A stretch of DNA of 64,000 nt from an uncultured Pseudomonadota bacterium. GTDB lineage: Bacteria > Vulcanimicrobiota > Vulcanimicrobiia > Eremiobacterales > Eremiobacteraceae. This document shows, in pieces, positions 35,665 to 52,121 of the stretch; positions within the stretch are counted from its first letter, which is position 1, and every line of letters begins with the position of its first letter. Under the pieces are notes generated by a model. The model saw only the letters and a list, made by a program, of their open reading frames with translations. It was not told where the DNA came from and searched no databases. The stretch lies in contig CAVTNB010000001.1 of assembly GCA_963736005.1 (NCBI GenBank), forward strand, positions 544,001 to 608,000, written 5' to 3'. The position numbers and the translations under genes were made by a program.

Positions 35665-37791
35665 CTAAGGCACGCGCACGAGCTCGACTCGCCGGTTGAG
35701 CGCTTTGCCCGTCTCCGCCGCATTCGAAGCGATAGGCCGGGTGAGCCCGTATCCCCTGGCCTCCAGTCTCGACGATGCGATCCGGTACTTGCTCACCAAC
35801 TCGTCGACGACTGCCTGTGCGCGCCGCTCGCTCAATTGCAGGTTGTAGGCCGCGCCGCCATCCGAATCGGTATGACCTTCAACGCGCATGCGCCAGAGCG
35901 GATGGATTTGTAAAACGCGAGCGATCTCGAGGATCGTGGCTTCCGACTGCGATTTGATCCGCGCGCTCGCGACGTCGAAGTGTATTCCATAGGTGCGGGC
36001 TCGGCCTCCCTGTTCGAGCTGCTTTGCGATGGACGGCGCGGCGGGTCGAAGCGCCGCAACGATTCGGCGCGGTCCGTTGCGTTCGAGCGCGACGCGCGCC
36101 ATGCATGGCAATGCAGTCTGCGGCGACAGCCCATACTCCGCGCGCGCGATCTGAATGGCCTGCGGAATACGAGCCCCCATGTCGTCAACGTCGAACCCGT
36201 TGTAAATGAGCACGCCTCGACCGAAGCGAGCATATGCATGCACCCACCCGGATACGCCCTTCGCGTTCTTCGCGAAGAGCAGGCCGCACCAGTGTGGATC
36301 ATTCGTCTGCATGATGTCAGCATCGCCGATTTGCTGCGTCTCGATCGCGAGATAGGCTCGCACGTCGAGAAAATGCGCCCGGTCTTTCGGGTCGTTGCTG
36401 CCGAGCACCGAGGAATCAGCGATCTGCAGCTCGTGGCCGCTAGCGCCGCCGGCTCCAGTCGCCGCGGTTCGGAACGGGTAGGGTATGAACGCGTAGTCGG
36501 AGTGGGAGCAGACGTCGGCGTCGCGGATGATCAAGATATGCCCGTTCGCCACGTAGTCGAGAAGCGCTTTCGTCTGTTCCGATGTCAAGTCGGTATTCGC
36601 CGCGCAGTCATTGGCGAGAATTGCCGCATGCGCGCGGTTGAGCGCGGCCGGCGAAAGCCCCGGCAAGAAGAGCGTCTGGTAGTGGAAGCCGGGTGCGACC
36701 TTGGGGTCGGCCTCAGGACCGCCGTTCGTAGGAATCCGCTTGATCACGAGCACTGTGGGTCCGCTGCCGGCGGCGGCCACGTCGCAGGTCGGAGCCGCCC
36801 CGATTCTGCGGGCCACAAACGGCAGTCCGCTAACTGAACCGACCAAGAGCGACCCCTTCGCGACGACGGTCAAGACGTCGCTGCCTCCGAGCGTGGCAGT
36901 GCCGTTCCGGATTGGGCCGTTCCACAGTGGATCTGTGCGCGTGCACGGTCCACCGCTCATCGCGCCGTCGCGCTCGAAGGTGGCGATTTGGGCTCCATCG
37001 GGCTTTAGGTGGTCGTCTGGATTGACGGCGCCGACAGTCGGCGCGAAGATCATGCCGCCATCGCCGTTCGCGTTGTCGGCAAGCGCCCAGCGTCCATTGA
37101 AGGACAAGGACGGCAGCGTCATGCTGCCGGCTGCCGAAATCGATTCGATAATGAGTGTCCCACCGGGCTTGCGGAGAAAAGTGAACCGCACCCATCGTGC
37201 CTGAAGCGGACCGGCGAGGGTGCCGGTCCGCTCGTAACCCGTTGCGGGGAACGTGATCGTTCCCGCACGGCTGAAAGCCAGGCCATTGACGGAGGCATCA
37301 ACGTCGACGTGCGTGTCTGGATCGGTCGCGCCGTACGTCGTGATGTTGATCGCGTCGATGCGAGCGACCGTCGGGAGCTCGAACAATACCTGCGGTGCTG
37401 TTTTGAAGTCGGGGTGGATCGTCCATCCACCGCCTGAAGCCAAGAGCGGAGCACCGCGGTTCGACGCGGCAACACTCCAGCTCTTTACGAAAGCGCCGCG
37501 CACATAGCTCAGCAGATTGCCTGACGGGCTGGCCGATGCAGAGGGCGACGGAACGGGAGCCGGCGCAGAGCTCGTCGGTTGCGATGCGATCGCCACGGGC
37601 GAGGCCTGCTCGCTAGACGTCGCCGGCGATCCGATCCCCTCAGACGATTGGGGACCCTGCGCACTCGGCGAGGTCGATGGTGGAGTGGCGGCGGGCGCTG
37701 AGGTGGCGCCGCTAGAGCTTTGATTGTGGCCGCAGGCTGACACCGTGACCAATGCGGCGAGGCACAGCGACGTGACAATCCTATTCCTCAT
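35665..37791 (-). CDS. OmpA-domain lipoprotein
   Basis: Lipobox VSAC, Ser/Pro linker, C-terminal GIHFD...VEGHTDSDG...NLQLSERRAQAV...NRRVE. Confidence 0.88.
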   Translation of the reverse strand: MRNRIVTSLCLAALVTVSACGHNQSSSGATSAPAATPPSTSPSAQGPQSSEGIGSPATSSEQASPVAIASQPTSSAPAPVPSPSASASPSGNLLSYVRGAFVKSWSVAASNRGAPLLASGGGWTIHPDFKTAPQVLFELPTVARIDAINITTYGATDPDTHVDVDASVNGLAFSRAGTITFPATGYERTGTLAGPLQARWVRFTFLRKPGGTLIIESISAAGSMTLPSLSFNGRWALADNANGDGGMIFAPTVGAVNPDDHLKPDGAQIATFERDGAMSGGPCTRTDPLWNGPIRNGTATLGGSDVLTVVAKGSLLVGSVSGLPFVARRIGAAPTCDVAAAGSGPTVLVIKRIPTNGGPEADPKVAPGFHYQTLFLPGLSPAALNRAHAAILANDCAANTDLTSEQTKALLDYVANGHILIIRDADVCSHSDYAFIPYPFRTAATGAGGASGHELQIADSSVLGSNDPKDRAHFLDVRAYLAIETQQIGDADIMQTNDPHWCGLLFAKNAKGVSGWVHAYARFGRGVLIYNGFDVDDMGARIPQAIQIARAEYGLSPQTALPCMARVALERNGPRRIVAALRPAAPSIAKQLEQGGRARTYGIHFDVASARIKSQSEATILEIARVLQIHPLWRMRVEGHTDSDGGAAYNLQLSERRAQAVVDELVSKYRIASSRLEARGYGLTRPIASNAAETGKALNRRVELVRVP

Positions 37792-40320: not shown

Positions 40321-40390
40321 GATAGAAAAGCCTCCTGACCACGCCCGCACCAGGAACAGATGTTCACGTCGTGCCGGACTGATGGTCAGA

Positions 40391-40423
40391 AGCTTACCGT
40401 GAGGGCGTGCCGCTTTCGTGCCG
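40391..40423 (-). promoter_or_regulatory. Heptamer direct-repeat promoter
   Basis: CGGCACG-aaag-CGGCACG-9 nt-TAAGCT; a third CGGCACG lies at 40370-76. Confidence 0.65.
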
Positions 40424-40470
40424 CCTCGGCGGGTGAGCCTTGGAGCGCAACCTTAAGCTATTCTTGGCTT

Positions 40471-40695
40471 GATCTTCACAACTTTTACGCGCTATGTTTG
40501 GACTCGAACATGGCCTACTCGTGCGCGTATTTTCGGGATGCTTCCGACACGATTGACGAGGCTCAGCTTCAGAAGTGCGATTTGATCTGCCGCAAGTCAC
40601 CCCTCAAACGAGGCGAGCGGTTCTTGGACATCGGTTGCGGTTCGGGCGGCCTCGTGCGCTTCGCCTGCGCGAGTACGGAGTGGAAGCAGTTCTGA
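40471..40695 (+). pseudogene. cfa: Cyclopropane-fatty-acyl-phospholipid synthase fragment
   Basis: FYALCLDSNMAYSCAYF...DEAQLQKCDLICRK..LKRGERFLDIGCGSGGL; both ends missing. Confidence 0.8.
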
Positions 40696-40824: not shown

Positions 40825-41850
40825 TCAAGGCAAAACCCGGTAGCGTGCTTCCATCCCCGCCATCAGGTGGCTTTGGACGTGGCAATGAAGCAACCAGACG
40901 CCCGGGTTGTCCGGGATCATGTCGGCGACCGCGATCTCGTCGATCTCCACCTGGAAAGCGTCGGTGCGCATCCCATTTTGCAACAACGTCTGGCCGTGCC
41001 AGTGCGGTGCGTGCGCGTCGAACCCGCTGCGCGTGACGATGACGTACCAGCGAGTCCGCTCGCCTTCGCGCACGGTGACCATCGGCATGGTGCCATAGCT
41101 GTAGCCATCGATGGTGAAGAATACGTTGGCGAACTGGAAGTTCGGCGCATGGCTTCCAACGTGTCGCGGATTGAGTTCCGGATCCGCGATGTTCGCACCG
41201 ACGAGGCGGCTCTGGCTCTCGTCCATCATAGCGAAGAGGATGGGCACTTCGCGGTCGACATCCGAGGGAGTTCCGTCGGGCCTCGCTGACCCTCGCCTGG
41301 TCACGATGACCGCTCCGATCATACCGGTGTTTTCGTCCCTATTCTCGGCGACCGGACTGTAGTAGCGCCACGCGATCGAGCTGCCATCGTTCACCCCGGG
41401 GCCCGAGCTCGCCGGAACGTGCCAAACATAGGTGTGCCGCCCGCCCGGTGCCACGACCGAGGATGAGCCCGCCAGCCCCGCAACTGCCATTGCGGCCGGT
41501 AATGGGGAATTGTTCTTGAATCGCACCACGAGCGTGTCTCCCACGACTGCGTGCATGGTCGGACCGAGCAGGCCCTGATAGGCGTCCGAGGCCGGCACCG
41601 GCACGCGCTTGGTGAACGACGCGTCCGTGTACGCTCGATACATGACCTTTCGAAACCGCCATCCCAGCGCGCCTGGGGGTAACGAGGGCAAAGGGCCGCC
41701 TGCAATCTGATCCTGACCGCCCGGTGCGTAATTCCAAACCACCTCATCCGCCGCGATGTAGTACGTGCGGATTGCCGCCTGGGCAGGTGCCGCGTAGATC
41801 AGGGCCGCGCCCAACAGTATCGCGGCAGTGGTTACAGACGCAGCCCTCAC
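40825..41850 (-). CDS. Two-domain multicopper oxidase subunit C (ceruloplasmin-like)
   Basis: Signal peptide, RTYYIAADE; domain 2 HAPHWH and HCHVQSHLMAGM intact, domain 1 His motifs lost; GTGA overlap. Confidence 0.9.
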   Translation of the reverse strand: MRAASVTTAAILLGAALIYAAPAQAAIRTYYIAADEVVWNYAPGGQDQIAGGPLPSLPPGALGWRFRKVMYRAYTDASFTKRVPVPASDAYQGLLGPTMHAVVGDTLVVRFKNNSPLPAAMAVAGLAGSSSVVAPGGRHTYVWHVPASSGPGVNDGSSIAWRYYSPVAENRDENTGMIGAVIVTRRGSARPDGTPSDVDREVPILFAMMDESQSRLVGANIADPELNPRHVGSHAPNFQFANVFFTIDGYSYGTMPMVTVREGERTRWYVIVTRSGFDAHAPHWHGQTLLQNGMRTDAFQVEIDEIAVADMIPDNPGVWLLHCHVQSHLMAGMEARYRVLP

Positions 41851-42923
41851 GGCCGCACCGTGTAGCGCCCGGTCATGCCCGCGTCGAAGTGTATGTTCAA
41901 GTCGCAATTGAGCATCCATACTCCCGGATTTTCCGGCACCATGTCCGCGACTCTCGTATCGCCCGGACCTAGCGGGAGCGTGTTCGAGCGTTGGCCGTTG
42001 GCGAGCACCGTCTGTCCGTGCCATGTGGGGAAGTGAAAGTCGAAATCGCTCATCGTCGTCATTAGATACCACCTGACTCGCTGGCCTTTTGTCATGGTGA
42101 GCATGGGCAGATTCCCGAATAGGAAGCCGTTGATCGTGAAGAACTGGTTGGCGCCTTGAAACTGCGGTGCTGATGCGGAGATGTGGTGCGGATTGGTCGA
42201 TGCACCTACCAGATTTTCCGATACCAGGCGGCTTTGGCTCTCGTCTATCTCCGAGAACATCGTGACGAACTCGGCATCGATATCCTTGGGTGATCCATCG
42301 GGGCGCGCCATGCCACGCCGCGTGATGATGATCGGGCCCACAGGGCCGGTGTTCAGGTCGCGCACGTCATCGGTGTGCGAATAATACATCCACACGATCG
42401 AACTTGGATCCGCCGGACCGGGCCCCGAGCGCTCCGGCACCGTCCAGGTGTAGGTGTACACGCTGCCGGGGGCAACCGCGCCACCGCGCTTATCCGATCG
42501 CGGAGCGTGGTCGCTATATGGCGCTCCTTCCGACGCTTTGCTGTACTCGACGCCTCCTGGATAGACGCTCAGGTGCAAGCTGGTGTTGTTCTTGAACACT
42601 ACGACGATCGTGTCGCCCACCACAGCGCGGATGATCGGGCCTAGCACGCCGAGGTACGCATCTGCCGGTCCGCGCCTTTTGAGATGACGAAACGTTCTGT
42701 CGGTATACGCACGGTAGAGCGCCTTGTGATAGCTCCAGCCCAGTTGCGGCGGCTCGACTGCGGGCAGTGCGGTGCCCGTGATGAGGTCGCGCCCGCTCGG
42801 TGCGAAGTCCCAGAGCACGTCGTCAGCGGCGATATAGTACGTGCGGACGGCGGCATTGCATGGCACTGCCCCCAACAGAACGATAGCGGCGATCAACGCT
42901 GCTTGTGCGGCGCGGGTGATCAC
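41847..42923 (-). CDS. Two-domain multicopper oxidase subunit B (ceruloplasmin-like)
   Basis: Signal peptide, RTYYIAADD; T1 ligands kept (HFPTWH, NCDLNIHFDAGM), most T2/T3 His lost; GTGA overlap. Confidence 0.9.
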   Translation of the reverse strand: MITRAAQAALIAAIVLLGAVPCNAAVRTYYIAADDVLWDFAPSGRDLITGTALPAVEPPQLGWSYHKALYRAYTDRTFRHLKRRGPADAYLGVLGPIIRAVVGDTIVVVFKNNTSLHLSVYPGGVEYSKASEGAPYSDHAPRSDKRGGAVAPGSVYTYTWTVPERSGPGPADPSSIVWMYYSHTDDVRDLNTGPVGPIIITRRGMARPDGSPKDIDAEFVTMFSEIDESQSRLVSENLVGASTNPHHISASAPQFQGANQFFTINGFLFGNLPMLTMTKGQRVRWYLMTTMSDFDFHFPTWHGQTVLANGQRSNTLPLGPGDTRVADMVPENPGVWMLNCDLNIHFDAGMTGRYTVRP

Positions 42924-44011
42924 GGCAGCACCGTGAAGCGCGCCGTCATGCCAGCCTCGAGATGGACGGCCAGGCTGCAATCGAACAGCCACACGCCGGG
43001 ATTGTCCGGCACCATGTCCGCCACTTTCATATCCATGGGGCCGAGCATGATGGTGTTCGCCCGCTGGCCATCGTACAGCACGGTCTGTCCATGCCAGGTC
43101 GGCGCATGGAAATCGTTATCGTCCATTGACGCGAGCAAATACCAACGGACGCGCTCGCCCCTTTTCATCGTGAGCATGGGAAGGTTTCCATAGTCAAACC
43201 CGTTGATGGTGAGGAACTGGTTGGCTGCCTGTAACTTGGCCGCCGAACCGGTCACGTGTTGCGGATTCGTCACGGGGTCCACGAGATTCGCGTGGAGCAA
43301 ACGGCTCAGGCTTTCGTCCATTTGCGCGAACATCGTGATGAATTCGACATCAACGTCCTTCGGTGATCCGTCGGGGCGCGCCATGCCGCGCCTCGTGACG
43401 ATGATCGGTCCGATCGGGCCGGTGTCCATGTCGCGGGTTTCATTGGTGTGCGAATGGTACATCCAGATGATCGAGCTCGGGTCCATAGGTCCAGGCCCGG
43501 AGCGCTCCGGCACCATCCACGTATAGGTATGTCTACCACCAGGTGGCACGGCGTCATCCCACTTGTCAGCGTGCGACGTTTCATCGCGATACAACGCACC
43601 CTCCGACGCTTTGTCGTACTTCATGCCGTGCGCGTGCAGACTCAAGTGCAGCCGCGTGTTGTTCTTGAACACCGCGATGATCGTATCGCCAACCTCGGCA
43701 CGGATCACGGGTCCGAGCAAACCGAGATATGCGTCCCGGGGTGCTCGCGCCTTGAGGTGGCGAAAGCTCGCGTCCGTGTACTCCCGATAGATCGCTTTGT
43801 GGTAGATCCAACCCAGCTGCAACGGTTGTCGCGGCGGCAGCGCCTTGCCCGCGACGAGGTCCTGCCGGCTCGGCGCGAAGTTCCACAGCACCTCGTCAGC
43901 TGCGATGTAGTACGTGCGTACGGCTGCCTGGGCGGCTGTCGCACTCGCTACCAGTAGGCCGGCGGCGATCGCAGCCATTCCCAGCGCCATTGTCATGCTC
44001 CAGCGTCTCAC
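42920..44011 (-). CDS. Two-domain multicopper oxidase subunit A (ceruloplasmin-like)
   Basis: GGAGG RBS and GTG start; domain 1 SLHAHG and WMYHSH intact; domain 2 HAPTWH and DCSLAVHLEAGM. Confidence 0.9.
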   Translation of the reverse strand: MRRWSMTMALGMAAIAAGLLVASATAAQAAVRTYYIAADEVLWNFAPSRQDLVAGKALPPRQPLQLGWIYHKAIYREYTDASFRHLKARAPRDAYLGLLGPVIRAEVGDTIIAVFKNNTRLHLSLHAHGMKYDKASEGALYRDETSHADKWDDAVPPGGRHTYTWMVPERSGPGPMDPSSIIWMYHSHTNETRDMDTGPIGPIIVTRRGMARPDGSPKDVDVEFITMFAQMDESLSRLLHANLVDPVTNPQHVTGSAAKLQAANQFLTINGFDYGNLPMLTMKRGERVRWYLLASMDDNDFHAPTWHGQTVLYDGQRANTIMLGPMDMKVADMVPDNPGVWLFDCSLAVHLEAGMTARFTVLP

Positions 44012-44259
44012 AACCGGTTCCTCCCCGTGCGGAAAAGCTATCTGGAACAAGGATAGCACCCCGCCGTGCGACCCGCGTGCGGACCTGCGGAGCTAGGGTA
44101 GAGATACGGAAATGCCTTGCGGCCGCCGGATCAAGATTTGCCGGAAATGTGCCACAAACGCCATCTTTCGCATTCCCAGCGCGACGGCAAACTCCAGGCA
44201 AGACGCGCATAGCCTTAATCCCGGACTGAGGTGGGCCGTCTCATCCGGCTCGGATGTCC

Positions 44260-44460
44260 TCACAGCGATCCCTTTCGTGACGAGCCGGTACCCATTTGAA
44301 GCCTGATGAAGTCCGCGACCTCACCCGCACTGCCGACAAAAAGCCGTCGCCCGGAAGACACGTGCTGTACCGACCCACGGAGTTGCGTGGTTTCAGTCCC
44401 ATGCTCAAGCCACATCCGCACCAGGAACACGTGCTCATTGCGCCCGTCGTCGCTGCTCAA
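44260..44460 (-). CDS. Small hypothetical protein downstream of the BTAD regulator
   Basis: GGAG then TTG; HVFLVRMWLE...LRGSVQHVSSGRRLF. Confidence 0.6.
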   Translation of the reverse strand: MSSDDGRNEHVFLVRMWLEHGTETTQLRGSVQHVSSGRRLFVGSAGEVADFIRLQMGTGSSRKGSL

Positions 44461-44480
44461 ACAGATTCTCCGGTCGGCTG

Positions 44481-47400
44481 CTACCGCTTCTTGCGCCGTC
44501 GAACCTGAGTATAGCGCACGGGCGCGCCGTGGGCGTACGCGGGCCATTCTCCCCGGTCGCCCGCGGCGACGATTTCACGGTTAAGGGGGAGCGCGAAAAA
44601 CGCGGCTCGCGTCTTGGCGTCCGCCACCCTATTGGCGAAGTTCTGCATGGTCGTCACCGCGTTCTGAAGATGGAGCTTCGCTTGCGCCTTATCGGCGTTA
44701 GCCTGGCAGACGATCGCCGCTGCCCAATAGCAATAGTGTGGCCAGAAGGCGCCATCCGCGCTCTTGCCGGCGATTTTCAGCAAAGTATCTGCGGTCGCCC
44801 GGGCCTTGACTAGGTCGCCCGTCTGGACGTAGCACACCGCAAGGTCGCAATAGTCGTCCAGTAGGTCCGTCGGCTCGAGCACAGCTTGGCGCAGCGCGAG
44901 TCCCTGCTCCAGGTGCCGCACGCCGGCGTTCACCTGGCCGCTCATGCGTTCGGCATTGCCGAGATTTGCAAGCGCTGCCCCCTCGAAAAGTGGGAACTTG
45001 ACCTCCCGCGCGATCTGGAGAGCCTCGGTCGCGAGTCGCACTGCGCCGTCGGTATCGCCTTGCAGTAAACGATTGAGACTCATATTGACTTTGGTCACCG
45101 CGAGAGGGCGACGGTCACCCGTCCGTTCCGTGATTTCGAGGACGCGAGCGCCCAACTGATCCGCCTCTTGGAGCAGCCCGAGCCGCAACGCGAGCACAAA
45201 ATGGTTGGCCACCACGTGTGAGGTGCCGCGCAGGTTGCCGATGGACTGCATTGCCTCCGCAGCCTGCGCAAATAACCCGCGTGCCGCCTCGAAGTCTGAT
45301 TGAAACGTCGCGATGGTCGCGAGACGCTGCAATGCGTGTGCTTCTTCTTCTCGGTCGCCGATCGAGCGGCTCAGCGCAAGGTCCTCATGCGCGAGCTCGG
45401 CTGCATCGCCGATACGGTGTTGCTGCAACGCCGCGATCGTGGCAGTCGAGATCGCGCGCAGGATCAAGGTCTTGGCGGGGTGCTCGGCAGTCCGGCTCCG
45501 TAAGGTCGCAAGCAATTGTCGTGACTGCTCGCCATGACCCGCGGCGGTTGCGATTTCGACGAGCATGGCGAGCGTCTCGACCTGGCCGTCGTTGTCGCCG
45601 AGGTTTTGATACAGCTCGAGCGCCGCCTTCGCCGGCTTTTCGGCCTGTGCATGACTCGTCAACCAGACGAGGTGTTCCGCCCTCGCAAAGAGTGCCTTCG
45701 CGCGCCGGTGCGGATCGCTGCTGACCGCTGCCCGGCGTTCGAGCTCTTCGACCGCGCTAGCCTGCTTTTCGCGATCGCCCAGGCTCCGCTGCAGTTGCAG
45801 CGTGCGCAGCAACGTCTGCCAAGAAAGTTCGTCATCACCGTTTTGTTCGCTCAGCGCGCGAAGGACCTCGATGTCAGCGGCTTGCGCTTCACGCTCCCCG
45901 AGCTTTCCAAAGGCCTGCTCTCGCAGCAGCAACGCCTGCGACCGCGTTTGGTCGTTGTTCGCCAAAGCGAGAGCTTTGGTCGCGTGTGCGATCGCTTCGT
46001 GGTTTGCGAACAACGCAGCGGCGTGAGCTGCCGCAGCGAGATACTGCGTAGCCGCCCGCGCCCCGTCGCCGCCACGCTCCCAGTGCAGCGCACGATCCGC
46101 CGCGGCGAATCCGCCTGCGTCCGAGGGTTGCGCTTCGAGCAATTGCGCGATGCGGCGATGCCGGCGCGTGCGCAACGGTTGAGCCACCATTTCATAGATG
46201 GCCTCTTGGATGAGATGGTGGGTGAATGCGTAGTCGTAGCGCCGCCGTACCCCTGCCTCGCGCACGAGGTGCCGGTCCATCAACTCGTTGACGCCGTCGA
46301 GAATCGCGGCCTCGCTCGCACCCGCGACCTCGCGGATAAGGTCGACGTCAAAGCCGTGGCCCACGATCGCAGCTACCTGCGCTATCTCGCGACCTTCCTC
46401 GCTCAGCGATGCGAGGCGCGCAGCGATCGTCGCGTGTAGGATGTCGCCGCTTGTCCGACGTGCGTCACCGCGAGCCGGCCCTCCCTCGACTTCACGCACG
46501 ACGTCGCGCAGCGCCTCGGTGAGAAAAAGCGGATTGCCTTCGCTGCGTTCAAACCCAAGCCGCGCCATTTCCGGACCCTTGCCGGCCGGGATCGGCATCC
46601 GTTCGACGATGTCAATGACGTCCGCCTGCGACAGCCGCTTGAGCGTGAGCGTGTTCGCCAATTGTTCGCCGCGCAGTTCTTGCAGCACCGCACGCAGGGG
46701 ATGCGCCCGGCCTGCCTCTTCTTCTCGATAGGTGCCCACCAAGAGCACTGCGCTCTTGGCAAGCCGGCGCGCGAGAAAGGCGATCGCTGCGAGCGTGTCG
46801 GCTCCAGCCCAGTGCAGATCTTCGAAGATCATTAAGAGCGGACGCGGCAACGCCATGGCGGAGATAGCCGATGCCGCTGCGTCGAGCAAGCGGGCCTGCT
46901 CTCGGCTTGGATCGACTGAGGGTATTTCCGGCAGGTCCGCTCTCCGGATGGCCAAATCGGGGATGAGCTGGGCGATGATCGCCAGTCGCAGCGGGTCGAG
47001 ATTGAGAGTCGCCACGTACGGCAGGCTGTAACGCAGCGCTTCAACGATGCATTCATACGGGAAACGCTCGGGGCAGGTGGTCACGCCGACACAGACTCGT
47101 CCCCCTTCGGACTCGACCGATCGGGCGAGCTCCGCCACGAGGCGCGACTTGCCGATGCCGGCTTCGCCCGCGACGAACATGAGGCTGCCGTTGCCCCGTG
47201 CGGACCGCATCCAGAGCGCGCGCAGTTGCTCGAGTTCGCCGTGGCGGCCGGCGAAGGGCAGGCCCTCGTTTGCCTCCCGAGCCGCGGAACCCTCAGGCAT
47301 CGCACCCGAGCCAAGCGACGCCGGCAGCGGCGCATTGCGCACGATCGCGTCGCGAACGACGAGCGTTTCCGGCATCGGCTCCACGCCAAGTTCCGCTTTC

Positions 47401-48050
47401 AATCGCTTCGCAAACACCTCGAATGTCGCAATCGCCCCGGCGGCATCGCCCGACTCGTAATGACACGCCATGGTCAGGCGCACGATATCTTCGCGCCATG
47501 GGTCTGCAGCGAGCAATCGCGCGGCGTACTCCAACGCGCGGGCGAACTTGCGGTCGTCACGATAACGCGCGATGAGCGTGCTTAGGTCGGTGAAATAGAG
47601 CGCGCGTAATCGCTCGCGATACGAGACGACCCAGTCGTCGTAGCTGTCTGCCAAGAGATCGCCGGCATATACGTCGACCGCCTCCGCGCAGGTACCCGGA
47701 TCGGCGCTGAGCCGTTCGAAGTCTGCAACGTCAAGCCGCATGGCGTCATCGACGTGCCAGCGCAGCATGTCACCGTCGGCGCGTATCCATGGCTCGCCGG
47801 ACGGCGTCGGCGGGAGCGTCTTATTCAGCAGATACACGTAGCGGCGGAGTTCGGCCAGGGCGACCTCTTCGGTCGCATCCGCCCACAAAGTGAACGCGAG
47901 CGTGTTCCGCGAGATCTGTTGCTCGCGATGCAGGAGGAGATATGCGGCCAGCGGTATGGTCGCAGCGCGTTTCGGCAACTTGATGGTCGCGCCCGCTGAC
48001 GCGATTTGCGGATGACCCAGCAGGCGGATATCGAGTTTCGCCTCGTCCAT
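44481..48050 (-). CDS. SARP-like wHTH-BTAD-AAA ATPase-TPR transcriptional regulator
   Basis: IRLLG, LDVADFE, YAGDLL, DPWRE, ELGVEPMPET; GEAGIGKS Walker A; IFEDLHWA; GNPLF; TPR repeats. Confidence 0.9.
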   Translation of the reverse strand: MDEAKLDIRLLGHPQIASAGATIKLPKRAATIPLAAYLLLHREQQISRNTLAFTLWADATEEVALAELRRYVYLLNKTLPPTPSGEPWIRADGDMLRWHVDDAMRLDVADFERLSADPGTCAEAVDVYAGDLLADSYDDWVVSYRERLRALYFTDLSTLIARYRDDRKFARALEYAARLLAADPWREDIVRLTMACHYESGDAAGAIATFEVFAKRLKAELGVEPMPETLVVRDAIVRNAPLPASLGSGAMPEGSAAREANEGLPFAGRHGELEQLRALWMRSARGNGSLMFVAGEAGIGKSRLVAELARSVESEGGRVCVGVTTCPERFPYECIVEALRYSLPYVATLNLDPLRLAIIAQLIPDLAIRRADLPEIPSVDPSREQARLLDAAASAISAMALPRPLLMIFEDLHWAGADTLAAIAFLARRLAKSAVLLVGTYREEEAGRAHPLRAVLQELRGEQLANTLTLKRLSQADVIDIVERMPIPAGKGPEMARLGFERSEGNPLFLTEALRDVVREVEGGPARGDARRTSGDILHATIAARLASLSEEGREIAQVAAIVGHGFDVDLIREVAGASEAAILDGVNELMDRHLVREAGVRRRYDYAFTHHLIQEAIYEMVAQPLRTRRHRRIAQLLEAQPSDAGGFAAADRALHWERGGDGARAATQYLAAAAHAAALFANHEAIAHATKALALANNDQTRSQALLLREQAFGKLGEREAQAADIEVLRALSEQNGDDELSWQTLLRTLQLQRSLGDREKQASAVEELERRAAVSSDPHRRAKALFARAEHLVWLTSHAQAEKPAKAALELYQNLGDNDGQVETLAMLVEIATAAGHGEQSRQLLATLRSRTAEHPAKTLILRAISTATIAALQQHRIGDAAELAHEDLALSRSIGDREEEAHALQRLATIATFQSDFEAARGLFAQAAEAMQSIGNLRGTSHVVANHFVLALRLGLLQEADQLGARVLEITERTGDRRPLAVTKVNMSLNRLLQGDTDGAVRLATEALQIAREVKFPLFEGAALANLGNAERMSGQVNAGVRHLEQGLALRQAVLEPTDLLDDYCDLAVCYVQTGDLVKARATADTLLKIAGKSADGAFWPHYCYWAAAIVCQANADKAQAKLHLQNAVTTMQNFANRVADAKTRAAFFALPLNREIVAAGDRGEWPAYAHGAPVRYTQVRRRKKR

Positions 48051-48470
48051 CAGCGCTGTCCGCAACGATTCTTCGGACGCCAGCCCGACATGGCTGACCA
48101 CGGAACGCTGGGATCGTGCACGACGATGAAGAGCGCATCCCGCCGGTCTGGCCCGAGTATGTCAGCCGCATCGGGGTGCCCATAGGCTCGAACATAGAAT
48201 GCTTCGCTGATATCATCTTCACTCCGCGCTGCGTTTCGACGCACTGAGCGCCACTCACAAGGTACCACGCGTCCGGCCCCGGGTGCACGTGCACACGGGT
48301 GATGCCGTTGAAGCCAACCCCTTCTCCGACGAGCAATTCGAGCGGTCTGCAGGTCGGCAATGGCAATGCACCAACTTCAGCAACAAACTTCGCACCTGAG
48401 AGTGCCCACTCTTGCGTCCAAGGGTCATCAGGAGGATCCGCTTGTCTCCAATAGCACCGCATGCTTCGGC
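48050..48470 (-). pseudogene. Cupin-domain protein, frameshifted and 5'-truncated
   Basis: VAEVGALP...VHVHPGPDAWYLVSGAQCVETQ...PMRL in one frame, continuing RDALFIVVHD...WRPKNRC in another. Confidence 0.6.
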
Positions 48471-48518: not shown

Positions 48519-50828
48519 TTACTGTCGCGAATCGGGAATGCAGACAAAAGATCCTAAGTTTGGAATGGTCATGGTGTTCTTCGGAATATTTACCTGGAAA
48601 TGACATGGTCCGGCAGAGCTTTGGGCCGAAAGTGAAAGCGTGCTGCCCGCTCTCACCCCGCCCAAATAAAGCTCGCCGTCTTCTCCAACGGGCCACGAGC
48701 TCTGTCCGTCCGAAGTGTGCACGATCGCGCCGGTACCCAAAGGCAGCCCGTCGCTACCCGTCACCGTCAGTACCACCCCACCGGCGGGTTTAACGGGGAA
48801 GACGGCCGTGACAGGGCTCCCATAATATGGCACCGCAGTGATCTGAGGCTCGCCGATATTTTCTGCGACCGGCAAATCTGACGATTCAACCCGGATGTAA
48901 TTGGTCTGATAAGGCTGCAGCGATGCAGCCAGGAGTCGACCCCGGGAGTCCGTGCGGCCCTCATTTTCGCCATTCACGTAGACGTGAACGTCGGGGTAAC
49001 CTGGGAGCTCTACGAGCGCGTAACTGTTGTCTATGCGCGGCGCGAGATACCATCCGTTGTCGACGTTCACCATTGAACCGGTTGCATCGACAGAGTAGGC
49101 CGTGCCGCCGCCGTTATTGCTGACCTCGGTGTCGATGACTCCTGTTCGGCCCCATTGCTCGATGTTGGCGTCAAAGCCCGCGCTTGATCCGGATTGCGCA
49201 AGTAAACGATACGCAAAGCCTTCGTTCGGTTGCGGCGTCCGTTCGCTAATATCAATGCTCTGTGATGCGTGGCTTTTGTCGACGGTCGCCTCCGAGATGA
49301 GCGAGCCGCGTCGGCCGAGAGCCACCGAATAGAGCAACGTGGCATCGATCGCATGCGCCGTTTGGTCGTCCAGCGCGATGAAACTCAATTGGCCGGAAGC
49401 GACGCTTCTGGACAAATTGAAGCTAGCTATTTCGTCTGTTTGTTGACCGGGGCGTGATCGCTCCACAATTCCTAGGCCGAGCGTGGTGCGTCGCCCGAGA
49501 GCGAGGCCAACATTGCCGCTTATTTGCTGCGTCCATTCGGTGCAAGTGAGGATGCACCCAACGGTGCTGAAACCTTTCGAGGCCTCGGCGATCTGCGCGC
49601 CGATGGAAATGCCCCGGTCGCTCTGCTGGTACCCGAAGCTCAACTTCCCGCCCGCAGTCTGACCAGTGCTTTCCGCTGCCCCAAGGGCCAAAACTCCAAT
49701 ATCGTCCAACCCCCAGTTCCCTGCAAGGGAAGCCATTGTTAATCGACCCTGCGTTTCGAGATGCGCCTCACCCGTGAAGCTTTCGGAAAATCCGTGGCGC
49801 CAGGTGCCGTCCATGAGAAACTGTCCGTAGGTGCCGGACGTTAATCCGTAATCTTCACGCGGAAAACCAGCAGAATACGAGAAGGCGCTGAGACCGCTTT
49901 TGAGGAGGGAATTAGACGCGTAGAACGAGCTTGTCAAATGTCGCTCATTTCCCAAAATGTCCTTCACCGTGACTTGAATTTGACCTTGACCGGTCACCAC
50001 GGGTAGATTTGCTATGTCCACCGGTCCCGGCTGCACCTGGCTGCTGTACTCTTTAATGCCGTTCACGTAGATGTCTACGAGCGACGGCAATGTTGCGGCA
50101 AGCGACAGCTGCGGCGTGGGGAACGTGATAAAACCGGGATCTGTAGAAAAGTTTGATTCCCACGTGATGCCGGCGAAGCGTACAGGTAATCCTAGCTGGC
50201 TCATCCCCGTCACGGCATCGCCCAGGAACCACGTCGCGCGGTCCGCGAGATCATCATGCCGAAGCGTGGTTGAGAGCCGTACGATCCCGTGCGATTGAAG
50301 AGCGCCTGCCTGGTAATCAAATGACTGCGTCAGGACCATTCCGTTAGCGGCGTAGTTGGCGTCAAAGATGCCGGCAGATGCGAACGATCGAGCTGCGCCA
50401 AACATATGCACATCATAATTCAGAAATCCCCCTGTGCCTCGCTCTGGAGGAGCGGCCCGCGTCCGTCGAGCGTCGACCGTGGTGGGTGCAAACGCTGCAG
50501 CACTCGCGTCGATGTTCAAGACTTGGTTCGGCTCGTCAAATGAGACGTGATCAATATGAAGAGATCCATCAAGCGGCACATACACGTTGCCGCGGTGCGT
50601 GATGCGGCGGGAAATCGGGACTGTAAGGCGCCAGGACCGCACCTCCGAAAGGGCCGCCCAGTAGGTATCGTCTTGTTTTAGAATGACACTCCCTTGCGAA
50701 ACAGCAACGCCGTTCAGCACGACCCCACAGAGAATTTCGCGATAGGTTTGATCAGGCCACGCTGGAAGCGCTGCGATGCCCAGCCAAACAAGTAATGCTG
50801 CGCAGAAAAAGGCGCAGCGCCTGGTCAT
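48519..50828 (-). CDS. Fimbrial outer-membrane usher
   Basis: GGFLNYD, PVRFAGI, PSLVDIYVNG, LKSGLSAFSYSAG, GRTDSRG, VGEDGELY. Confidence 0.9.
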   Translation of the reverse strand: MTRRCAFFCAALLVWLGIAALPAWPDQTYREILCGVVLNGVAVSQGSVILKQDDTYWAALSEVRSWRLTVPISRRITHRGNVYVPLDGSLHIDHVSFDEPNQVLNIDASAAAFAPTTVDARRTRAAPPERGTGGFLNYDVHMFGAARSFASAGIFDANYAANGMVLTQSFDYQAGALQSHGIVRLSTTLRHDDLADRATWFLGDAVTGMSQLGLPVRFAGITWESNFSTDPGFITFPTPQLSLAATLPSLVDIYVNGIKEYSSQVQPGPVDIANLPVVTGQGQIQVTVKDILGNERHLTSSFYASNSLLKSGLSAFSYSAGFPREDYGLTSGTYGQFLMDGTWRHGFSESFTGEAHLETQGRLTMASLAGNWGLDDIGVLALGAAESTGQTAGGKLSFGYQQSDRGISIGAQIAEASKGFSTVGCILTCTEWTQQISGNVGLALGRRTTLGLGIVERSRPGQQTDEIASFNLSRSVASGQLSFIALDDQTAHAIDATLLYSVALGRRGSLISEATVDKSHASQSIDISERTPQPNEGFAYRLLAQSGSSAGFDANIEQWGRTGVIDTEVSNNGGGTAYSVDATGSMVNVDNGWYLAPRIDNSYALVELPGYPDVHVYVNGENEGRTDSRGRLLAASLQPYQTNYIRVESSDLPVAENIGEPQITAVPYYGSPVTAVFPVKPAGGVVLTVTGSDGLPLGTGAIVHTSDGQSSWPVGEDGELYLGGVRAGSTLSLSAQSSAGPCHFQVNIPKNTMTIPNLGSFVCIPDSRQ

Positions 50829-50830
50829 AC

Positions 50831-51559
50831 CTACCGCCCGGCAGGTATGAGCGGCACCTGCACGACGCCGTCATCCGTATGCAGTTCAACCGCTAAATCG
50901 AAGAGCTCGTTCGGCACGGCAAACTTTATTGGGAATGCTCTCGTCTCGTGGGCCAACACGTAAGAGGCCAGCGTGCCTGCAAACAGGATATGGCCGGTGC
51001 CCGCTTGCTTGATCCAGAGCTGGCTGACCTGGGCATGGATGTTGCCAGCGTTCGCTATTGTGAGCAAACCCCGATTTCGACCGGATCCTGCAAGCGAACA
51101 CGAGAGCAAAGGATGTCCTGCGGCTGACGGCTGGAGGAAGACCGGAAGCGCAAATTCCATCTGGAATGCGATGCCCATCCGTGCCTTAACCGGCGCGTTG
51201 AGCTGCTTGATGAACACCCGGTAGGTTCGTTCCGTGCTTGCGTCCGGCATAATGCGCGAACCGATGCGAAGCACTTGGCGCGCGCCGGGCTGCAGTGAGA
51301 ATATAAGGGGCGAGACAATGAGATCGTCCGTGGGTGATAGCACGTCTTTGCCGTTCTGCTGCGTCCACCGGGAAACGTGTATTTGGAAAAGGTCTATTGC
51401 GACATCGTTGTTTGTGAGTTCGACCGTTTGAATCGGCTGACGTGCGGATATCTGAAGTCGTGGGGGCGTCACTTCGATACCCCCCAAATTAGCGCCGGCA
51501 GCAAGCAAAGGTAAGAAGGACGCGGCAAAACAAAACGCGGCCAAGATACCTTTCTTCAT
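50831..51559 (-). CDS. Fimbrial periplasmic chaperone
   Basis: Signal peptide, WTQQNG.D, LIVSPLIFSLQPGARQVLRI, ERTYRVFI, LPVF, NAGNIH. Confidence 0.88.
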   Translation of the reverse strand: MKKGILAAFCFAASFLPLLAAGANLGGIEVTPPRLQISARQPIQTVELTNNDVAIDLFQIHVSRWTQQNGKDVLSPTDDLIVSPLIFSLQPGARQVLRIGSRIMPDASTERTYRVFIKQLNAPVKARMGIAFQMEFALPVFLQPSAAGHPLLSCSLAGSGRNRGLLTIANAGNIHAQVSQLWIKQAGTGHILFAGTLASYVLAHETRAFPIKFAVPNELFDLAVELHTDDGVVQVPLIPAGR

Positions 51560-51590
51560 TGCGGTGGATCCAAGATCGAGCTGGTTTATG

Positions 51591-52121
51591 CTAGAAGGAC
51601 ACCGTGATGACGACCTTGTCCTGGTAAGTGCCAGCTGGTGTCGTAGTGGTGATTGCACCGACTGGTACATCGCCGAATATGGTGAACGGATCCGGATTAC
51701 CGTCACCGACGGCCGTTTCAGCTGAACCCCCGGCTCCAACCATGCCCGAGCCCCAAACAGTTGTGAAACCTGGATCCTGAAAGAGGTTGTAGGCGATCAA
51801 GACGTCTCCGCCCGAGCCCCCGTTCCAAAGATTCCTAGTGGAGAAACCGGGACCGGGGTTGCCTCCGGTGCTAAGGTCAACCGAATAGGGAATATTCTGG
51901 TTACACATGACGTAAAACGTCATCTGTGCCGGGATATCGCTCGACTGATTGTACAGGTAGTTGGAAGTCCCGAAATCAAGCAACGCGGGATTTTTGACTA
52001 TAGCGCACGCGTTCGTGACATTCAGCGTAGCCAAAAAAGTGTCGCTCGTTGAGTCGGCTCGGGCTACTACCGGAGCCACAAAGCACAACGCGATTGCTGT
52101 TATAAAAAAGAACCTTTTCAT
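51591..52121 (-). CDS. Spore coat protein U domain pilin (Csu-type)
   Basis: Signal peptide, VTNAC...LDFG...CN, YNLFQD...WG, PAGTYQDKVVITVSF. Confidence 0.88.
   Translation of the reverse strand: MKRFFFITAIALCFVAPVVARADSTSDTFLATLNVTNACAIVKNPALLDFGTSNYLYNQSSDIPAQMTFYVMCNQNIPYSVDLSTGGNPGPGFSTRNLWNGGSGGDVLIAYNLFQDPGFTTVWGSGMVGAGGSAETAVGDGNPDPFTIFGDVPVGAITTTTPAGTYQDKVVITVSF

Follow-up and report, generated by a model that had tools for sequence, protein, structure and literature searches.

Two-domain multicopper oxidases (MCOs) have been described as homotrimers, and six-domain ceruloplasmin is thought to derive from such a homotrimer by triplication, fusion and the loss of two of the three copper clusters. 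In rings of this fold, as in the solved ceruloplasmin and two-domain oxidase structures, domain 2 (D2) of one unit faces domain 1 (D1) of the next. The small laccases (such as SLAC, PDB 3cg8), two-domain oxidases of type B, carry all eight cluster histidines in each polypeptide and form homotrimers with three clusters. In the literature searched, no stage between the homotrimeric two-domain and the six-domain oxidases had been characterized, and no report was found of a two-domain oxidase made from different gene products. The 'heterotrimer' of PMC11761707, as presented in the excerpt of that paper, is made of a single gene's protein, part of it having had an extra domain clipped off; the excerpt of PMC5566968 gives oxidase gene clusters without split ligand sets. 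Here we describe three minus-strand open reading frames (ORFs) at positions 40825-44011 of a 64,000-nucleotide stretch of contig CAVTNB010000001.1, hereafter called the window, that encode paralogous two-domain MCOs, designated A, B and C. The distribution of copper ligands among them suggests that, rather probably, they form together a single heterotrimeric MCO, which would be ring-shaped and exported.

All three proteins contained the Pfam domains Cu-oxidase_3 and Cu-oxidase_2 with scores above the curated cut-offs. A was 65% identical to B and 53% identical to C, and the D1 loop of C was approximately 18 residues shorter than that of A and B. The A/B overlap reads ...CTGCCGTGATCACC... and the B/C overlap reads ...CGGCCGTGAGGGCT...; the junction sequences across both overlaps are CCGTGATC and CCGTGAGG. 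Both junctions contain GTGA, in which TG belongs both to the upstream TGA stop and to the GTG start of the next gene. Reading of the sequence revealed no Shine-Dalgarno-like site ahead of B or C, whose starts fall within the preceding stop codon; this absence of ribosome-binding sites of their own is consistent with translational coupling. A scan for promoters and terminators gave nothing exceeding the shuffled expectation. The six domains are not parts of one polypeptide, because there are three ORFs with stops and their own starts, both here and in the corresponding loci of genomes G155 and G103 and of the metagenome contig L056. Each protein began with a hydrophobic stretch, ending in AQA (A), CNA (B) or AQA (C) and followed by (A)V/I-RTYYIAAD; orthologues and other family members were alike. 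Signal peptides were assigned to A, B and C by eye. Tat export of A was considered and rejected as a conserved feature: the window and G155 have RR, but G103 has ER. Because the twin arginine is not conserved, Sec export was inferred. The ORFs, domains and junctions agree with the initial annotation, which had recognized three two-domain MCO paralogues joined by GTGA overlaps and had given each its own signal peptide.

The ligand columns scored were H-x-H and H-x-H in D1, and H(T1)-x-x-H-x-H and H-C(T1)-H in D2, where T1 denotes a type-1 copper ligand. In A, the D1 half of the cluster ligands was intact (HH.HH; HAH and HSH) and the D2 half was degraded (TH.DS; T.H and D-C-S). B had lost both halves (D1 YG.YH, from Y.G/Y.H; D2 TH.ND, from T.H and N-C-D). 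C had lost the D1 half (AA.YP; A.A/Y.P) and kept an intact D2 half (HH.HH; H..H.H and H-C-H). The type-1 site of D2 (HCHM, for His/Cys/His/Met) was kept in A, B, C and all of their orthologues. These readings match the motifs, with complementary type-2/type-3 losses, that had been quoted at the outset. Counted as D1 plus D2, the trinuclear-cluster histidines number 4+1 in A, 1+1 in B and 0+4 in C; no single polypeptide has the set of eight, which is complete only as A(D1) plus C(D2).

Cluster positions in six-domain proteins, given in the excerpt of PMC3600357 as D6/D1 in chordates and D2/D3 in algal Fox1 and MnxG, lead to the rule that D2 of one unit meets D1 of the next. With this rule, a ring in the order A→B→C would place eight histidines at the C(D2)/A(D1) interface, two at A/B and one at B/C. 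The alternative order A→C→B would give 1, 5 and 5, and homotrimers would have 5 (A3), 2 (B3) or 4 (C3) per interface. As a positive control, the same columns were applied to bird and crocodile ceruloplasmin, opossum hephaestin, and lamprey, amphioxus and coral proteins. The known ceruloplasmin pattern was obtained, with the D1 half only in unit 1, neither half in unit 2 and the D2 half only in unit 3.

By its ligand columns the triplet resembles ceruloplasmin and hephaestin: the first unit has the D1 half, the middle unit none and the last unit the D2 half, with type-1 sites in the even domains. Provided that ring order equals gene order, the columns yield three even-domain type-1 sites and a single cluster where the first and last domains meet, and to that extent the layout of ceruloplasmin claimed in the initial annotation agrees with our results. 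Ceruloplasmin is one chain, whereas A, B and C are encoded by separate genes, each with a signal-like N-terminus, that stem from an independent triplication. The best sequence matches of A among solved structures, repeat by repeat, belonged to the six-domain multicopper ferroxidases, as vertebrate ceruloplasmins (PDB 5n0k, 4enz, 2j5w and 1kcw); each of the three repeats of vertebrate ceruloplasmin aligned end to end at approximately 1e-54 to 1e-62, and the next structure matches were coagulation factors V and VIII. The small laccases share with A, B and C the two cupredoxin domains, the type-1 site in D2 and a cluster expected at the D1/D2 interface between neighbours, but they are distant in sequence, matching A at approximately 1e-13 over domain 1 alone, and none of A, B and C has the full histidine set that each small laccase polypeptide has. 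Complete single-gene bacterial members of the family have all eight histidines and the type-1 site, stand alone in the genome and are presumed homotrimers.

A phylum-wide search gave a family match in 100 of 401 genomes, mostly as one complete gene; the named relatives were Candidatus Eremiobacter and other Eremiobacterota. Tandem clusters occurred in 12 genomes, every one in the window's own family (f1), and A-B-C triplets in three: the window's genome (G000), G155 and G103. The window's genome, from a soil bacterium, is 2.84 Mb in 6 contigs and 84% complete. It has four family members, namely the triplet and a separate gene, L003 (G000:C1:661292-662386, outside the window), that has all eight cluster histidines and the type-1 site, is 50-56% identical to A, B and C, and has the same length and a signal-like N-terminus. 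The ligand pattern of the triplet was the same in 4/4 further triplet assemblies: G155 (L005, the same as L036) and G103 (L006, the same as L038), each entered twice, and L056. The pattern thus recurs in the genome search that had been proposed for it, and the losses are not random.

The ratios of nonsynonymous to synonymous substitution (dN/dS) among the window, G155 and G103, calculated by the Nei-Gojobori method with our own script, were 0.07-0.09 for A, 0.09-0.13 for B and 0.09-0.11 for C. Purifying selection on each of the three genes is strong, and the values for B indicate that it is not decaying.

The relatives within the Eremiobacterota family form a graded series of single complete genes, pairs of a complete gene (F) with a ligand-less one (E), complementary A'+C' pairs, and the A+B+C triplet. 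In the A'+C' pairs, A' is HH.HH|DH.ND and C' is AA.YT|HH.HH; these pairs were found in G300, G166 and, in pieces, G380, followed in each by a second pair that is also complete plus ligand-less. Other F+E pairs were present in G155, G212, G333, G189 (two), G116 (two), G187 and G233. E subunits are without any cluster histidine, keep the type-1 site and have the short loop; one, known from the unpublished record of G233, has lost the type-1 site as well (HSDM). F+E pairs are widespread (L037, L041-L047 and 14 metagenome loci), with the downstream E paralogue overlapping the complete gene; they may form a 2:1 ring with one cluster, or E may be a separate blue-copper partner.

A metagenome scan with C-type proteins returned 76 loci. 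These included one further triplet (L056, 91% identical), the A'+C' pairs L057, L059 and L060 together with L058, which the contig edge truncates, 14 complete plus ligand-less pairs, and about 50 single complete genes or fragments. The genome and metagenome surveys overlap, L063 and L065 being G116 and L130 being G392. All four D1 histidines were present in every complete A or A' protein seen, and all four D2 histidines in every C or C' protein. A C/C'-type gene followed the A/A'-type gene, directly or past B, in all ten loci with readable downstream genes (G000, G155, G103, G300, G166, G380, L056, L057, L059 and L060); in four other A/A'-type loci (L062, L064, L098 and L100) the neighbour was lost to the contig end.

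Among the best 120 database matches to A, 98 were complete, with eight histidines and a type-1 site, and 16 had the A' pattern or a near variant. Complete single-gene members carry automatic names such as 'multicopper oxidase domain-containing protein', 'hephaestin' and 'manganese oxidase', which are not evidence of function. A search of representative sequences with C gave 2645 matches at E<=1e-3 and 369 at E<=1e-30, and the best 150 were mostly long multi-unit proteins. Because several short 'C-like' or 'A-like' representatives are indistinguishable from fragments of eukaryote six-domain proteins (e.g., P0326, a fish ceruloplasmin-like record), no count was drawn from them. In a sister family, f2 (G260:C3, G392:C3, G209:C1 and G253:C6; L051-L054), several single copies were broken or frameshifted into two or three ORFs.

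Natural fusions are represented by two metagenome proteins. P0240 (709 aa) consists of a C-like and then an A-like unit, and P0125 (1048 aa) of a dead unit, then a C-like and then an A-like unit; the two form a separate clade. Each chain places its intact D2 half next to its intact D1 half, in neighbouring domains, and in P0125 the cluster would sit between domains 4 and 5, a position not described as of 2013 in the excerpt of PMC3600357.

We propose that the subunits are made from a translationally coupled operon, are probably exported separately by Sec, and assemble into a ring outside the cytoplasm. In a ring of order A→B→C, the four histidines of C D2 and the four of A D1 would form the single trinuclear, O2-reducing cluster, and the A/B and B/C interfaces would be copper-free. 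All three subunits would hold type-1 copper. By analogy with ceruloplasmin, because only the type-1 cysteine of C is flanked by cluster histidines (H-C-H), this site would be wired directly to the cluster. Those of A (D-C-S) and B (N-C-D) would serve as extra electron-entry or relay sites, like the type-1 sites in ceruloplasmin domains 2 and 4.

The relation of these units to one another and to animal ceruloplasmin was examined with a tree of 74 two-domain units (IQ-TREE quick search, LG+C20 model with posterior mean site frequencies (PMSF), support by the Shimodaira-Hasegawa-like approximate likelihood ratio test (SH-aLRT), midpoint root for drawing). A and B were sisters (99) inside a bacterial clade, with (A',(A,B)) at 94/99. 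C and C' grouped together (98), within a clade of short-loop units that also included all E subunits (98), and the complete partners of E formed a separate clade (99). The congruent subtrees (A',(A,B)) and (C',C) suggest that an A'+C' pair existed before the duplication of A'. From these trees and the operon types, the pair would have come first, probably as an A'2C' ring, and A' would then have duplicated into A and B. B would occupy the ring position in which the D1 histidines were never used, and would have lost them for that reason.

The 21 animal units formed one clade (SH-aLRT 99), within which first, second and third units grouped separately and which the units of one protist joined (98). 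This eukaryote clade was sister to the complete single paralogues of G000 (L003) and G300 (97). L003 was 44-49% identical to single ceruloplasmin, hephaestin and coral units, and is possibly one of the bacterial proteins most closely related to ceruloplasmin. By comparison, A, B and C were 34-43% identical to single units of ceruloplasmin, hephaestin and coral proteins, and neither A with unit 1, B with unit 2 nor C with unit 3 stood out. When the short-loop clade (C and its kin) was constrained to group with the eukaryote third units, a grouping named after the tree was seen and prompted by a loop noticed earlier in the structure matches, the log-likelihood was 218 units worse and the approximately unbiased (AU) test gave p = 1e-30. 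The D1 loop of unit 3 is short in vertebrates (13-14 residues) and long in corals and amphioxus (28); the vertebrate short loop is a later loss within animals, parallel to that of the bacterial C/E clade.

These results bear on the evolutionary suggestion of the initial annotation, in which the triplet is either a not yet fused stage leading to six-domain oxidases such as animal ceruloplasmin or the outcome of splitting a six-domain gene that had been acquired. The high similarity to the ceruloplasmin repeats, the match between gene order and domain order, and the short D1 loop common to C and the vertebrate third unit all speak for such a descent, and orthology of C with the third ceruloplasmin unit was entertained on the strength of that loop. 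However, A, B and C fall within bacterial clades, apart from the clade that the eukaryote units make up; they are thus not orthologous to animal units by a common triplication. The AU test rejects the grouping of C and its kin with the animal third units, and because the third units of corals and amphioxus have retained the long loop, the short loops of vertebrate unit 3 and of C are independent. The identity of A, B and C was flat across the three ceruloplasmin units. We therefore rejected orthology of C and consider direct descent in either direction highly improbable. The distinct animal clade and the AU rejection argue that the bacterial split is convergent with the ceruloplasmin layout. 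On this phylogenetic evidence, the split and the animal triplication had separate origins, and the former is neither ancestral to the latter nor derived from it by fission.

The claim of a heterotrimer, also made initially, stood in part. No subunit has all eight histidines, only the order A→B→C would give 4+4 at one interface, and the arrangement is conserved and under purifying selection. Support comes from half-sites that would be useless alone and are strictly kept, from purifying selection that includes B, from the co-occurrence of A- and C-types and the GTGA coupling, from the congruence of the (A',(A,B)) and (C',C) subtrees, from the C-like/A-like fusions, and from ceruloplasmin and hephaestin, whose three units show the same three patterns. 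A different assembly, which we consider unlikely, would be mixed rings of variable make-up (A2C, AC2, or with the complete paralogue), with B optional, regulatory or a scaffold and without a fixed 1:1:1 ratio. Related operons with two genes only (A'+C' and F+E) imply that two-component rings must exist if the proteins assemble, and a complete paralogue is present in the same genome; but B shows the same degree of conservation as A and C, stands between them in translational coupling, and has lost just the D1 histidines in a way that suits a fixed middle position in the ring. Somewhat less likely still is that the three proteins do not assemble with one another, each being its own homotrimer or monomer and acting as a type-1 blue-copper carrier or as an enzyme with a reduced interface site. 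The type-1 site is kept in all three, and an A homotrimer would still have five histidines per interface; three are used by the copper nitrite reductases, which have the same fold. This explanation does not account for exactly complementary halves being kept across orthologues, for A-types followed by C-types in every readable locus, or for the natural fusions of a C-like to an A-like unit.

Several points weigh against the heterotrimer. The complex itself, its stoichiometry, ring order, export route and copper content were all deduced from sequences; the signal peptides are a by-eye judgement, and the equation of ring order with gene order is a functional argument. The complete fourth paralogue, L003, could supply all of the oxidase activity, leaving A, B and C other roles. 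The full triplet is confined to three genome species and one metagenome contig, all close relatives (78-93% identity), and its conservation therefore spans little evolutionary depth. A search of sequencing runs turned up no RNA run, and the DNA runs listed contained at most 0.23 of the sequence words. A complex prediction for mature A+B+C with family alignments gave scores of 0.11 and 0.24 with C as partner (mark 0.32) and weighs neither way.

Beyond the assembly itself, we hold as evenly balanced the broader reading that an obligate heterotrimer of A, B and C would be a convergent 'ceruloplasmin in three pieces', within a living series of intermediates that replays stepwise the route long proposed from homotrimer to six-domain protein. 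The series, equally balanced between acceptance and doubt, would run from the single gene through the F+E pair, the complementary pair and the triplet to the two- and three-unit fusions. The chances are no better and no worse that two of the three clusters were lost in it before gene fusion. If the subunits assemble as proposed, the locus would provide a tractable bacterial model of the layout with a single cluster and three type-1 sites, in which each third could be mutated, omitted or swapped on its own, and the two-gene and fused relatives would allow the order of events, subfunctionalization before fusion, to be tested. The ceruloplasmin layout would then have evolved at least two times, and such a repeated origin would suggest that evolution favours a design in which several type-1 sites feed one cluster. 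The case lies in the bacterial family closest to ceruloplasmin.

Features of the triplet and its surroundings are listed in Table 1.

Table 1. Features at and around the A-B-C triplet (positions in the window)
Feature	Position	Strand	Remarks
Gene A	42920..44011	-	363 aa from GTG; two-domain MCO subunit, signal-like N-terminus
Gene B	41847..42923	-	358 aa; two-domain MCO subunit, between A and C
Gene C	40825..41850	-	341 aa; two-domain MCO subunit
GGAGG, Shine-Dalgarno-like	44020..44024	-	8 nt ahead of the GTG of gene A at 44011
BTAD + AAA_16 + TPR regulator gene	44481..48101	-	Pfam; directly upstream of the triplet
95-aa ORF	44260..44547	-	Between the regulator gene and A; overlaps the regulator end
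111-aa ORF	40360..40695	+	Just downstream of C
PapC outer-membrane usher and PapD-like chaperone genes	48519..51739	-	
OmpA-family gene	35665..37791		

The regulator gene lies upstream of the triplet also in L005 of G155 (93% identity) and L006 of G103 (79%), and a 48%-identical homologue stands beside two complete plus ligand-less pairs (L044 and L045). From this linkage, the BTAD protein is a candidate regulator of the operon. Among the neighbour genes of the triplet, which include unknown secreted proteins, the Pfam domains revealed no copper chaperone, transporter or other copper-handling gene. The 95-aa ORF is 86% and 82% identical at the protein level in G155 and G103, respectively. The 111-aa ORF matches positions 19-82 of the 273-position CMAS profile and is probably the remnant of a cyclopropane-fatty-acyl synthase gene; L005 has a 76% match to it. 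The usher, chaperone and OmpA-family genes point to diderm-type surface machinery in this Eremiobacterota genome.

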